Of a stretch of 38,067 nucleotides of DNA, positions 23,797-33,123 are shown in pieces. Within the stretch, counting starts at the first letter, position 1. The number at the start of each line of letters is the position of its first letter. The position numbers and the translations under genes were made by a program. Under the pieces are notes generated by a model that saw only the letters and a program-made list of their open reading frames with translations, did not search any database and was not told the origin of the DNA. The stretch is from a virus. Its lineage: Duplodnaviria; Heunggongvirae; Uroviricota; Caudoviricetes. The stretch lies in the IMG/VR virus record IMGVR_UViG_2541047915_000012, one strand, 5' to 3'.

Positions 23797-23868
23797 TGAA
23801 GTGGTTTACTGAATTTGGCCACCTGAACAGAGGTGATATGCTCACCTCAGAACAACACAGGTGCCATA

Positions 23869-24171
23869 ATGAAAAAAAGAAATTTCAGCGCAGAGTTTAA
23901 ACGCGAATCCGCTCAACTGGTCGTTGACCAGAATTACACCGTGGCAGATGCAGCCAGCGCTATGGATGTCGGCCTTTCCACAATGACGCGATGGGTGAAA
24001 CAATTACGTGATGAGCGGCAGGGAAAAACACCAAAAGCCTCCCCTATTACCCCGGAACAAATTGAAATCCGTGAGCTCAGGAAAAAGCTACAACGTATTG
24101 AAATGGAAAATGAAATATTAAAAAAGGCTACCGCGCTCTTGATGTCAGACTCCCTGAACAGTTCTCGATAA
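23869..24171 (+). CDS. orfA: IS911 OrfA (transposase N-terminal/regulatory protein)
   Basis: 100 aa [21 protein letters not shown]...; helix-turn-helix plus leucine zipper; contains A6G frameshift heptamer at 24120-24126. Confidence 0.85.
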
Positions 24172-24197
24172 TCGGGAAACTCAGGGCGCGTTATCCT

Positions 24198-25016
24198 GTG
24201 GCCACTCTCTGCCATGTGTTCGGGGTCCATCGCAGCAGCTACAAATACTGGAAAAACCGTCCTGAAAAGCCAGACGGCAGACGGGCTGTATTACGCAGCC
24301 AGGTACTTGAACTGCATGGCATCAGCCACGGCTCTGCCGGAGCAAGAAGCATCGCCACAATGGCAACCCAGAGAGGCTACCAGATGGGGCGCTGGCTTGC
24401 TGGCAGACTCATGAAAGAGCTGGGGCTGGTCAGCTGTCAGCAGCCGACTTACCGGTATAAACGTGGTGGTCATGAACATGTTGCTATCCCTAACTACCTT
24501 GAACGGCAGTTCGCCGTGACCGAGCCAAATCAGGTGTGGTGCGGTGATGTGACCTATATCTGGACGGGTAAGCGCTGGGCGTACCTCGCCGTTGTTCTCG
24601 ACCTGTTCGCAAGAAAACCAGTGGGCTGGGCCATGTCGTTCTCGCCGGACAGCAGGCTTACCATGAAAGCACTGGAAATGGCATGGGAAACCCGTGGTAA
24701 GCCCGTCGGGGTGATGTTCCACAGCGATCAAGGCAGTCATTATACGAGCAGGCAGTTCCGGCAGTTACTGTGGAGATACCGGATCAGGCAGAGTATGAGT
24801 CGGCGTGGAAACTGCTGGGATAACAGCCCAATGGAGCGCTTCTTCAGGAGTCTGAAGAACGAATGGGTGCCGGCGACGGGCTATGTAAGCTTCAGCGATG
24901 CAGCTCACGCAATAACGGACTATATCGTTGGATATTACAGCGCACTAAGACCGCACGAATATAATGGTGGGTTACCACCAAACGAATCGGAAAATCGATA
25001 CTGGAAAAAACTCTAA
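24198..25016 (+). CDS. orfB: IS911 OrfB (DDE transposase catalytic domain; expressed as OrfAB by -1 frameshift)
   Basis: 272 aa in the -1 frame relative to orfA, open back to the slippery site; DDE-type integrase core (...[13 protein letters not shown]...[10 protein letters not shown]...). Confidence 0.85.
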
Positions 25017-25204
25017 CTCGGTGGCCAGTTTTTGTTGACCACTTCAATATGACCGGCACGGTGTGCCATATCACGGACCGGCGGGTGTCTCGTTCACCTG
25101 ATTAACGCATCAGCCTGCGTATTCACCACAACGATAAGAGTACTGCGCGGCACCTTTCACCAATTCCGCGAGGTCTGCGGGTTCAATGCTCTTACCTGTT
25201 GTGC

Positions 25205-25249
25205 AAACAAAAAAGCCACCGTTGCAACTTAAGAGTCACTAACGGCAGC
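25205..25249 (-). terminator. Rho-independent terminator just downstream of Q (tR'-like)
   Basis: Minus strand GCTGCCGTT-(18 nt)-AACGGTGGC stem with two G-U pairs, followed by TTTTTTGTTT; directly precedes the lambda-like leader motif GCACAACAGGTAAGAGCATTGA. Confidence 0.55.
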
Positions 25250-25259
25250 TTACCTTCTA

Positions 25260-25289
25260 ATTATGGCTAAATGGATAATTGCATGTCAA
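25260..25289 (-). promoter_or_regulatory. Candidate late promoter (pR'-like) overlapping the Q stop codon
   Basis: Minus strand TTGACA (25289..25284), 18-bp spacer, CATAAT (25265..25260); the -35 lies in the last Q codons; terminator hairpin begins only a few nt after the predicted start, so assignment is tentative. Confidence 0.45.
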
Positions 25290-25785
25290 GGTTTTTAACA
25301 GCAACATGCTTAACTTTCTCAACACGTTTACGCATTTTGAAAGCATTTTGCATTGGCTGGTATAAAACAAATAATGACGCTTTCAGGATGTCGTCAATTT
25401 CGTTTCTACAGGTTGCCAGTGAAGGTTTTCTCCATCCCTCGCCACCACGTCCACACATCTTGCGTGGCTTTGCAGTCGCGTGATAGTAGGATGCAATTGC
25501 TCGCTTAGATGAACCATGAGCGTAGTAGCTGAGGAGGATGCCAAAGGCTTTCTTGTCAATGTACATGACGGAATCAACGACCTGAGAAATCAACATTCCA
25601 TCATCATCATTACACATTGGCCTTGTCATAATTCTTCCCGGCTCTACGCTCTCCATGAACTTCGCTATTACGCTGCTCATGCGCTTTTCCAGACGACCTG
25701 AATAAACCCATGCGCCCCACAGTTCAAGCCAGCCATTCAGCCACTCGTGCTGCTCTTTGGTGAGGTTTAGTTCTCTTATGCTCAT
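25267..25785 (-). CDS. Late-gene antiterminator Q-family protein (not lambda-Q type)
   Basis: 172 aa; motif WGAW...CNDDDG resembles Q-like antiterminators of cryptic lambdoid prophages; directly upstream of candidate late promoter and lysis genes; start overlaps ninH stop. Confidence 0.6.
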   Translation of the reverse strand: MSIRELNLTKEQHEWLNGWLELWGAWVYSGRLEKRMSSVIAKFMESVEPGRIMTRPMCNDDDGMLISQVVDSVMYIDKKAFGILLSYYAHGSSKRAIASYYHATAKPRKMCGRGGEGWRKPSLATCRNEIDDILKASLFVLYQPMQNAFKMRKRVEKVKHVAVKNLDMQLSI

Positions 25786-25970
25786 CGTCTTCCCCTCTTG
25801 CCTTGTTTGACCATCAGGACGCCGTTAACTATTACGTGACGCTCGCCTTTGCTGTCTCGGTTGTACTTGAGCACTGTTCCTCTTGCGCAGGAAAGCATCC
25901 TCGCCACTTCGGTCTGATTGCCTCGTGTCTGGATAAGAAGCTCTGGTATCGTTTGAATTGTGGCGTTCAT
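25782..25970 (-). CDS. ninH: NinH-like small DNA-binding protein
   Basis: 62 aa; ...TIPELLIQTRGNQTEVARMLSCARGTVLKY...HVIVNGVLMV resembles lambda NinH (...TIPDMLVE.YGNQTEVARRLKCSRGTVRKY...HAIVNDVLMV). Confidence 0.7.
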   Translation of the reverse strand: MNATIQTIPELLIQTRGNQTEVARMLSCARGTVLKYNRDSKGERHVIVNGVLMVKQGKRGRR

Positions 25971-31133: not shown

Positions 31134-31166
31134 TTGACCATTAATTAAAGAGATCTTAAATTTAAG
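31134..31166 (+). promoter_or_regulatory. Candidate pL with overlapping OL operator palindrome
   Basis: -35 TTGACC (31134-31139), 17-bp spacer, -10 TAAATT (31157-31162); perfect 12-bp palindrome CTTAAATTTAAG (31155-31166) overlaps the -10; further TTAAG half-sites upstream. Confidence 0.5.
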
Positions 31167-31478
31167 CCATCAGCAGGACGCTGGAAGCCAAACGGAACAG
31201 ATTGGCAGGCTCTTTAACATTGATGGGATTGTCCCGCCGAAATGCGGGAACCAAAGAGTAGTTGGCTTTGGGGTGACGTGAAGTGCAGCTGCACGACGGC
31301 AACCGGAAGATAAGCACCCGGCGCGTCACCGCCAAAGTCAATTCCATAGGCGTTATGCAGCCGCCACCATATTCAAGAAAGCTGCACAAGAGGTAGGAGG
31401 ATTTATGTGAATGCATAACTTCAAAACCGAGGTTAATTAAATCTCTCGATCCGAGCATCGACCTATTAGGTGGCGAGA

Positions 31479-31507
31479 TGCTCTTTCTGCCCCTCAGTTC
31501 GAGGGGC
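31479..31507 (+). promoter_or_regulatory. nutL-like site (boxA-like element plus boxB hairpin)
   Basis: TGCTCTTTC (boxA-like) followed immediately by GCCCCTC-AGTTC-GAGGGGC (7-bp stem, 5-nt loop), ~55 nt upstream of the N-like start. Confidence 0.55.
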
Positions 31508-31562
31508 CAGAAACCACTTTGCAATCACTATCAATTCCAAAGTTGTTTCATCGGAGGTCAAC

Positions 31563-31808
31563 ATGACAGTAGTCATTACATATCTGGCTGACGATAACGC
31601 CAGAAATCGCCGCAGAGCACGCAGACAGGCTCAACGTGAACAGGCGATGCAAGAACAGCGACTGGCGCGAAAAATTGCGCTAAAGCTCTCTGGTTGCGTC
31701 AGAGCGGATAAAGCAGCATCACTCGGAATCCTTCGCTGCAAGAAGGCAGATGAAGTCGAGAGTAAACAGAATCGTATTTACTACCGCAAGCCACGCAGTG
31801 AAATGTGA
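31563..31808 (+). CDS. N-like transcription antiterminator, C-terminally truncated by IS911 copy 3 (stop codon supplied by the IS terminal TGA)
   Basis: ATG at 31563 with GGAGG RBS; N-terminal arginine-rich motif DDNARNRRRARRQAQREQ; downstream of pL/nutL; reading frame would continue 18 more codons past the IS (GVTCVGRQKMKLGSKPLI*). Confidence 0.6.
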   Translation: MTVVITYLADDNARNRRRARRQAQREQAMQEQRLARKIALKLSGCVRADKAASLGILRCKKADEVESKQNRIYYRKPRSEM

Positions 31809-31877
31809 AGTGGTTTACTGAATTTGGCCACCTGAACAGAGGTGATATGCTCACCTCAGAACAACACAGGTGCCATA

Positions 31878-32180
31878 ATGAAAAAAAGAAATTTCAGCGC
31901 AGAGTTTAAACGCGAATCCGCTCAACTGGTCGTTGACCAGAATTACACCGTGGCAGATGCAGCCAGCGCTATGGATGTCGGCCTTTCCACAATGACGCGA
32001 TGGGTGAAACAATTACGTGATGAGCGGCAGGGAAAAACACCAAAAGCCTCCCCTATTACCCCGGAACAAATTGAAATCCGTGAGCTCAGGAAAAAGCTAC
32101 AACGTATTGAAATGGAAAATGAAATATTAAAAAAGGCTACCGCGCTCTTGATGTCAGACTCCCTGAACAGTTCTCGATAA
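31878..32180 (+). CDS. orfA: IS911 OrfA
   Basis: Identical translation to copy 1 OrfA. Confidence 0.85.
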
Positions 32181-32206
32181 TCGGGAAACTCAGGGCGCGT
32201 TATCCT

Positions 32207-33025
32207 GTGGCCACTCTCTGCCATGTGTTCGGGGTCCATCGCAGCAGCTACAAATACTGGAAAAACCGTCCTGAAAAGCCAGACGGCAGACGGGCTGTAT
32301 TACGCAGCCAGGTACTTGAACTGCATGGCATCAGCCACGGCTCTGCCGGAGCAAGAAGCATCGCCACAATGGCAACCCAGAGAGGCTACCAGATGGGGCG
32401 CTGGCTTGCTGGCAGACTCATGAAAGAGCTGGGGCTGGTCAGCTGTCAGCAGCCGACTTACCGGTATAAACGTGGTGGTCATGAACATGTTGCTATCCCT
32501 AACTACCTTGAACGGCAGTTCGCCGTGACCGAGCCAAATCAGGTGTGGTGCGGTGATGTGACCTATATCTGGACGGGTAAGCGCTGGGCGTACCTCGCCG
32601 TTGTTCTCGACCTGTTCGCAAGAAAACCAGTGGGCTGGGCCATGTCGTTCTCGCCGGACAGCAGGCTTACCATGAAAGCACTGGAAATGGCATGGGAAAC
32701 CCGTGGTAAGCCCGTCGGGGTGATGTTCCACAGCGATCAAGGCAGTCATTATACGAGCAGGCAGTTCCGGCAGTTACTGTGGAGATACCGGATCAGGCAG
32801 AGTATGAGTCGGCGTGGAAACTGCTGGGATAACAGCCCAATGGAGCGCTTCTTCAGGAGTCTGAAGAACGAATGGGTGCCGGCGACGGGCTATGTAAGCT
32901 TCAGCGATGCAGCTCACGCAATAACGGACTATATCGTTGGATATTACAGCGCACTAAGACCGCACGAATATAATGGTGGGTTACCACCAAACGAATCGGA
33001 AAATCGATACTGGAAAAAACTCTAA
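32207..33025 (+). CDS. orfB: IS911 OrfB
   Basis: Identical translation to copy 1 OrfB. Confidence 0.85.
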
Positions 33026-33123
33026 CTCGGTGGCCAGTTTTTGTTGACCACTTCAATGGGTGTGACTTGTGTTGGTCGCCAGAAAATGAAATTAGGCAGC
33101 AAACCACTTATTTGAGGTGATAT

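Follow-up and report, generated by a model that had tools for sequence, protein, structure and literature searches.

The decay of resident prophages through insertion sequences (IS) is a known phenomenon. In Shigella dysenteriae 1, whose defective Stx prophage contains IS elements, and in the insertion-with-deletion events of IS150 recorded in the long-term evolution experiment, IS copies without a target-site duplication mark the loss of phage functions, with a useful cargo gene and the immunity genes being kept (PMC7819885, PMC11708052; see also PMC6379469). Loss of the duplication usually results from recombination between two IS copies or from an adjacent deletion, and in three long-term evolution populations about 17% of 83 IS movement events were accompanied by a deletion, all of them involving IS150, an element of the IS3 family (PMC11708052); IS3 is also known to make adjacent deletions (PMC8860574). 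The subject of the present analysis is a 38,067-nt stretch of viral DNA (IMG/VR record IMGVR_UViG_2541047915_000012; "the window" refers to this whole stretch), which represents a P22-like prophage of Escherichia coli K1 and harbors three direct copies of an IS3-family element, ISEc52. With the Stx prophage and the IS150 events it shares a duplication-less IS at the site of lost phage functions and the retention of cargo and immunity. With phage Sf6, which is P22-like and of the same genus, it shares an IS911-type element in the nin region (in ninG in Sf6) and nearly identical PR', qut and tR' sites; Sf6, however, carries a single copy, shows no deletion and is a viable phage. Compared with other prophages grounded by IS elements, the window is a strain-specific instance in which the cargo is neuO-dependent capsule O-acetylation. 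The kind of event is already known, namely IS-mediated prophage decay by a known IS in a known prophage family; the only additions made here are that the replication module is recognized as deleted, and that sister strains have undergone deletions in parallel.

The arrangement is best explained by a local burst of ISEc52, which very probably disabled a CUS-3-like prophage in the recent past through two simple insertions and one IS-associated deletion.

Three ISEc52 copies and the loss of the replication genes

A preliminary description of the window had reported three identical copies of a 1250-bp IS in the same orientation. This proved exact to the base: no pair of copies shows a mismatch by exact comparison, the similarity ends sharply at both termini of each unit, the transposase genes are intact in all of them, and a repeat finder recovered the three copies with start-to-start spacings of 4541 and 3468 bp. 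The copies and the genes that they interrupt are as follows.

23797..25046, plus strand: ISEc52 copy 1, a simple insertion with the 3-bp duplication ATA (23794-23796 and 25047-25049)
28095..28337, minus strand: ninB remnant, with the C-terminal 81 codons (80 residues and the stop) kept and the N-terminal 56 codons gone, adjoining the left end of copy 2
28338..29587, plus strand: ISEc52 copy 2, without target-site duplication, flanked by CCT and GTT
start at 29700, minus strand: truncated 90-codon open reading frame (ORF), which runs into copy 2
31563..31808, plus strand: N', the truncated antiterminator gene, with 81 of 99 codons kept and a TGA stop formed by the first three bases of copy 3
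31806..33055, plus strand: ISEc52 copy 3, a simple insertion in N with the 3-bp duplication ATG (31803-31805 and 33056-33058)
33056..33115, plus strand: displaced 3' end of N, comprising the last 18 codons and the stop, with the duplicated ATG

The history of each copy was read from a mapping onto the IS-free prophage of the E. coli type strain ATCC 11775 (locus L006), phage CUS-3 (CP000711) serving as second reference. Copies 1 and 3 break sequence that is contiguous in the IS-free relative, each duplicating 3 bp; the target of copy 1 corresponds to L006 2495-2497, 218 bp downstream of the Q stop codon and 377 bp upstream of the holin start. Copy 2 is of another kind. Its left flank (window 28337) corresponds to L006 5785, inside the NinB gene (5543-5953), and its right flank to L006 9345, inside the 90-codon ORF beside cII, the two being collinear but separated in the relative, as expected of an IS-associated deletion. 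Between them the ancestor had 3,559 bp (L006 5786-9344), which are gone, copy 2 standing in their place. The missing segment contained the 5' part of ninB, two small ORFs, the genes for the DnaB-like helicase P and the replication protein O, and the 3' part of the 90-codon ORF; Pfam matches were obtained for NinB on the intact protein, and for Phage_rep_O and the DnaB-like helicase among the lost genes. The junctions are represented by the 30-mers CCACTGAACTTGCCTTGAAGTGGTTTACTG (left, J2L) and TTGTTGACCACTTCAGTTCTGGCAACTTTC (right, J2R). Since the same IS duplicates 3-4 bp at simple insertions elsewhere, a copy without duplication is an informative rearrangement scar, and copy 2 marks an IS-associated deletion of the replication genes. 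In the preliminary description it had been taken as a plain bracket between two gene blocks; that it lacks a duplication and occupies the site of a 3,559-bp deletion which has already taken place had been missed.

The same prophage has suffered comparable losses elsewhere. Junctions were searched with 120-bp probes in 5,426 complete E. coli genomes, and the left junction of copy 1 recurs in two of them only, AH21I008 and ESBLEC_HM50. Both carry one exact IS (L005 12998-14247 in AH21I008) that has the copy 1 left junction, a right junction inside O and no duplication, the deletion having removed Q, the nin genes, P and part of O. In AHB22, one exact IS (L004 12113-13362), again without duplication, joins the lysozyme R gene to a point 101 bp from the right junction of copy 2. 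There are therefore at least three independent ISEc52-bounded deletions in this prophage (the window, AH21I008/ESBLEC_HM50 and AHB22), all of which take O/P and retain cII-cro-cI; N is intact in both sister structures. The earlier suggestion that blocks bounded by IS copies can be deleted is borne out by these cases.

None of the 5,426 genomes contains the three-IS arrangement when the whole locus is searched for, the copy 2 junction on either side, the right junction of copy 3, or predicted recombination products with copy 2 or copy 3 junctions. As the arrangement is absent from these genomes and the surrounding prophage is virtually identical to its IS-free relatives, the insertions appear to be recent, and since a 9.3-kb stretch holds three copies out of a handful, the events were presumably local as well. 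The sister genomes contain about 6-7 IS left ends each, and the number of three-copy clusters within 9.3 kb expected from 7 random copies in 5 Mb is about 3.6e-4. Recent transposition had been proposed before on the ground that the copies are identical. The conclusion stands on the absence of the arrangement and the unchanged backbone, but copy identity carries little weight, because the same 1250 bp is found in prophages of other strains and 940 records have a best match at 99% identity or higher.

The element itself has the features of the IS3 family, with a length in the 1.2-1.5 kb class, TG...CA ends, a frameshifted orfA/orfB pair, a full-length DDE transposase profile and duplications of 3-4 bp. 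Its termini are the imperfect inverted repeats TGAAGTGGT...ACCACTTCA, and its coding features in copy 1, which recur in copies 2 and 3 with orfA and orfB displaced by 4541 and 8009, are listed below.

23869-24171, plus strand: orfA, 100 aa, with a Pfam HTH_Tnp_1 match on called genes
23869..25016, plus strand: orfA and orfB together, orfB in the -1 frame, with a Pfam rve match on called genes
24120-24126, plus strand: slippery site A AAA AAG (IS position 324)

Reconstruction of the OrfAB fusion gives a protein of 382 aa that has no internal stop, keeps the D, D and E residues, and matches the NCBIfam model NF033516 (IS3 family transposase) with 380.6 bits over profile positions 1-368 of 369, the cut-off being 160; a sequence search of the PDB with OrfAB returned distant retroviral integrase cores only. 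With IS911 the element has in common the 1250-bp length, the TG...CA ends, the A6G -1 frameshift, the DDE transposase, the 3-4-bp duplications and the copy-out-paste-in mode of transposition, and IS911 was the name given to it in the preliminary description. An alignment with the IS911 copy of phage Sf6 shows 94.9% identity (63 mismatches, 1 gap). Isoforms are, by the ISfinder convention, elements of roughly at least 95% nucleotide identity. RefSeq labels the Sf6 copy "IS911 family" and copies 100% identical to the present element "IS3-like element ISEc52 family". ISEc52 is the better name, judging from these identities, and IS911, a sister element, only an approximate one. ISEc52-type matches occur in 4,886 of the 5,426 complete genomes, the best match being at least 99% identical in the 940 records mentioned above. 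The exact 1250-bp sequence also occurs in further prophages, carried by different strains and in one case by an ST131 genome, and simple insertions of the identical IS in other prophages show duplications of 3 or 4 bp (GTT and CTGG). An insertion hot spot was considered and rejected, as ISEc52 lies in the P22-like or lambdoid prophages of AH21C082 and of the ST131 strain MB1159 at unrelated sites (int and the early-left region), as simple insertions.

Predicted consequences for the prophage

The two gene blocks bounded by the IS copies had been correctly delimited before, the first (between copies 1 and 2) holding Q-ninH-rusA-DUF1364-roi-ninF-ninX-ninE-ninB' and the second (between copies 2 and 3) orf'-cII-cro-cI-N'. 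An oop RNA gene, which had been placed in the second block, was not recovered: an Rfam scan for oop or nut-type RNAs gave nothing in the region that reached the gathering score, the sole match being a sar RNA elsewhere in the window. The features that bear on transcription are the following.

25209..25289, minus strand: PR', qut and tR', all intact, on the Q side of copy 1
25267..28098, minus strand: Q-nin block (Q, ninH, rusA, DUF1364, roi/KilAC, ninF, ninX, ninE), between copies 1 and 2
29723-30016, minus strand: cII, in the immunity block (29588..31041)
30125-30310, minus strand: cro, in the same block
30391-31041, plus strand: cI/C2 repressor, intact, with helix-turn-helix and Peptidase_S24 domains

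Copy 1 lies in the leader of the late operon, about 160 bp beyond tR' and between PR'-tR' and the holin gene, with its transposase genes antisense to late transcription. The promoter PR' (TTGACA-18-CATAAT, 25289-25260) scored 11/12 in a promoter scan, tR' is a terminator hairpin followed by a T-run (about 25250-25209), and in the first 97 columns of an alignment with the Sf6 sites as annotated, PR'/qut/tR' show ~96% identity; the Q-nin block is 100% identical to that of the ATCC 11775 prophage. Copy 1 separates PR'-qut-tR' from the lysis and morphogenesis genes. Copy 3, the transposase of which runs in the same direction as pL transcription, truncates the N antiterminator; the intact N protein matches PHROG 271 (N-like) with E = 2.9e-36. 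The deletion at copy 2 took O, P, the start of ninB and part of the small ORF. An origin or a terminator, if the segment had one, would have been lost with them; this applies to the replication origin if it lies inside O, as it does in lambda and, according to the annotation, in Sf6. With an IS standing in the way from pR to Q and a second one separating PR' from the late genes, the prophage would be locked in place. Judged from its gene content it appears to be grounded, that is, unable to replicate, and it probably cannot antiterminate either. An intact repressor, the operators, cro and cII are retained, and the structural, lysis and immI regions are near-identical to those of the IS-free relative; neither the neuO coding region nor int falls within the window. 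The three direct repeats could serve as substrates for further deletion.

The locus offers a clean, datable example of how IS elements would make a fixed chromosomal island of an inducible prophage, the IS-free relatives with a near-identical backbone carrying the phase-variable neuO capsule O-acetyltransferase. For annotation, it follows that the prophage is to be scored as defective, that the IS is to be called ISEc52, and that IS copies without duplication are to be treated as deletion scars. The current understanding of IS3-family elements and of lambdoid prophages is left unchanged.

Several observations weigh against the reading of a recent burst that grounded the prophage. The window is known from a draft scaffold, in which both the joining of the copy 2 flanks through one IS and the agreement of the copies in their interiors depend on the assembler; if the assembly was made from short reads, this agreement could in part be an assembly consensus, the six junctions being unique sequence. 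No pre-deletion intermediate was found in the complete genomes, in IMG/VR or in the JGI metagenomes. The loss of replication, the weakening of N and the block of late transcription are predictions from gene content, Q-modified polymerase may read through copy 1, and phage Sf6 is viable with IS911 in ninG.

Alternative routes and alternative accounts

Two routes to the copy 2 deletion have been considered, both of which yield the same final structure and have precedents in the IS3 family (PMC11708052, PMC8860574). A transposition-coupled event, either an adjacent deletion or an insertion with deletion, is held to be slightly the likelier, because it involves a smaller number of events, the searches revealed no intermediate, and in the window itself three direct repeats persist without having collapsed. 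The other route, which has a substantial but somewhat less than even chance of being correct, makes copy 2 a hybrid formed by RecA-dependent recombination between two earlier ISEc52 copies in the same orientation, one in ninB (duplication CCT) and one in the ORF upstream of cII (GTT), with O, P and one IS looped out. The flanks CCT and GTT are exactly those predicted, same-orientation local insertions are evident in the same prophage (copies 1 and 3), and recombination between IS copies is a standard source of a lost duplication (PMC11708052). Recombination would nevertheless require five events, four insertions and one crossover, against three, and neither of the partner junctions that it predicts (IS|CCT-ninB and orf-GTT|IS, represented by the 30-mers TTGTTGACCACTTCACCTAGCGATATCTGC and TCAGAAGCTCAGTTTGAAGTGGTTTACTG) was found in the complete genomes; six scans of IMG/VR and the JGI metagenomes for these and for the two copy 2 junctions likewise gave 0 matches. 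The persistence of three 1.25-kb direct repeats in the window argues that recombination is too slow to erase intermediates at once, and the AH21I008 structure, which combines the left junction of copy 1 with a new right junction, has the classic pattern of an adjacent deletion, though it is compatible with recombination. An error of assembly, whereby the three copies or the copy 2 join would result from repeat resolution and O-P might, for example, still lie between two IS copies, is quite unlikely. It would fit the identity of the window with a draft-assembly scaffold (GCA_000460795.1) and the failure of any complete genome to reproduce the arrangement; the window, however, contains no Ns, has six clean junctions and perfect duplications at copies 1 and 3, and a unique 3.6-kb segment is not normally dropped inside a scaffold. 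Complete sister genomes obtained from long reads have the copy 1 junction and similar IS-bounded deletions, and the N'-IS junction is reproduced by independent Logan assemblies of several runs. The 81-aa N' allele occurs on seven contigs, the source NCBI scaffold and six short Logan contigs from several sequencing runs, and the orf'-IS fusion at copy 2 on the source scaffold only; the short-read contigs with the N'-IS junction end about 28 bp inside the IS and cannot link junctions.

A further account, advanced in the preliminary description, sees the IS-immunity-IS unit as a composite element able to move the repressor and its operators; together with its counterpart around the Q/nin block, it is extremely unlikely to be a functional transposon that carries these genes to new sites. 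Direct copies of a copy-out-paste-in IS can form real composites, as in ISApl1-mcr-1-ISApl1, or Tn6330 (PMC5821093), the ends and transposase are intact in every copy, and a structure of two IS copies around a passenger is present at 23797-29587 and at 28338-33055. Tn6330 resembles these units in having two direct IS copies around a passenger, but it has common outer duplications and many insertion sites, and the window units have neither. The outer flanks of every pair differ (ATA/GTT, CCT/ATG and ATA/ATG), copies 1 and 3 each have their own complete duplication at an ancestrally contiguous site and so were inserted in place, and every segment is in its ancestral order and position. Moreover, the unit was found on none of 72,556 plasmids (the best coverage was 53%, by the IS only) and at no other site in the complete E. 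coli genomes, so that the earlier proposal is not sustained. It is also very unlikely that the 4.7-kb segment IS-cII-cro-cI-pL-N'-IS can be mobilized by OrfAB through pairing of its outer ends (the left one of copy 2, the right one of copy 3); if this were true, other replicons would receive a functional repressor together with its operators, and thereby immunity to superinfection. In a less far-reaching version, the loss of O/P with cI spared in three independent deletions could reflect selection, rather than chance, for grounding the neuO-carrying ST95 prophage.

The host prophage and minor observations

The window and scaffold KE702029.1 (draft assembly GCA_000460795.1) are identical in sequence. 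For most of its length the window aligns collinearly with phage CUS-3 (97.3-99.9% identity), from the heptanucleotide repeat of neuO (window 1-97) to the attR core at ~37847. Synteny, the neuO repeat, a K1 endosialidase tailspike and attR all identify the element as CUS-3-like (Lederbergvirus), and it is a P22-like prophage of ST95 E. coli K1, integrated at argW beside dsdC. Many genomes contain an IS-free version; examples are S88, APEC O1 and the type strain ATCC 11775, the last of which belongs to ST95. Relative to the ATCC 11775 prophage there are 0-2 mismatches per aligned block outside the IS events, with 1 mismatch and 1 gap in the 20.6 kb of structural genes. In the region of immI and the ejection proteins (about 3635-10315) the window has another mosaic than CUS-3; what sets it apart from both CUS-3 and the argW prophage of ST95 is the presence of three ISEc52 copies, the absence of O/P and of half of ninB, and the truncation of N.

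At its start (1-97) the window holds 13.9 perfect copies of the heptamer AGTCTTG, the array being cut by the window boundary; the heptamer is the reverse complement of the AAGACTC "poly-psi" repeat by which neuO varies in phase in CUS-3, and the array of ATCC 11775 has about 30 copies (210 bp). A PNAS paper of 2022 (PMC9659370), in which neuO is reportedly discussed, is said to treat phage resistance of K1 strains and a host regulator. The sar RNA recognized by Rfam lies at 4205-4271 on the plus strand (83.9 bits, against a gathering score of 43); it is the antisense RNA of the P22 immI region and falls within the mosaic segment that differs from CUS-3. In the same segment, at about 4952-5986 on the minus strand, a ClpP-like protease subunit and a YafO-family toxin adjoin the Arc/Mnt-type immI genes, according to the RefSeq annotation of the near-identical stretch of ATCC 11775. 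The ATCC 11775 prophage has an IS of its own, a 2.58-kb IS21-like ISEc12 between ant and the tailspike gene (at the site corresponding to window 3173-3177, with a 5-bp overlap or duplication), which is not present in the window; different IS elements have thus struck the same prophage in different ST95 strains.

Some smaller points concern the immunity block. The Logan contigs with the N'-IS junction (L009 and L010) all start inside cII, at 29756, and not at the copy 2 junction, which suggests that those genomes contain a second, partly identical cII-proximal sequence belonging to another lambdoid prophage. Two single-base differences from ATCC 11775 were noted: position 30322, between cro and cI in the OR region, is A in the window and also in AH21I008 and AHB22, and the change at 31130, between cI and N, is unique to the window. 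At the other end (37867-38067), the window stops exactly where the annotated torI, an excisionase-like gene, ends, dsdC being the next host gene in the relatives.

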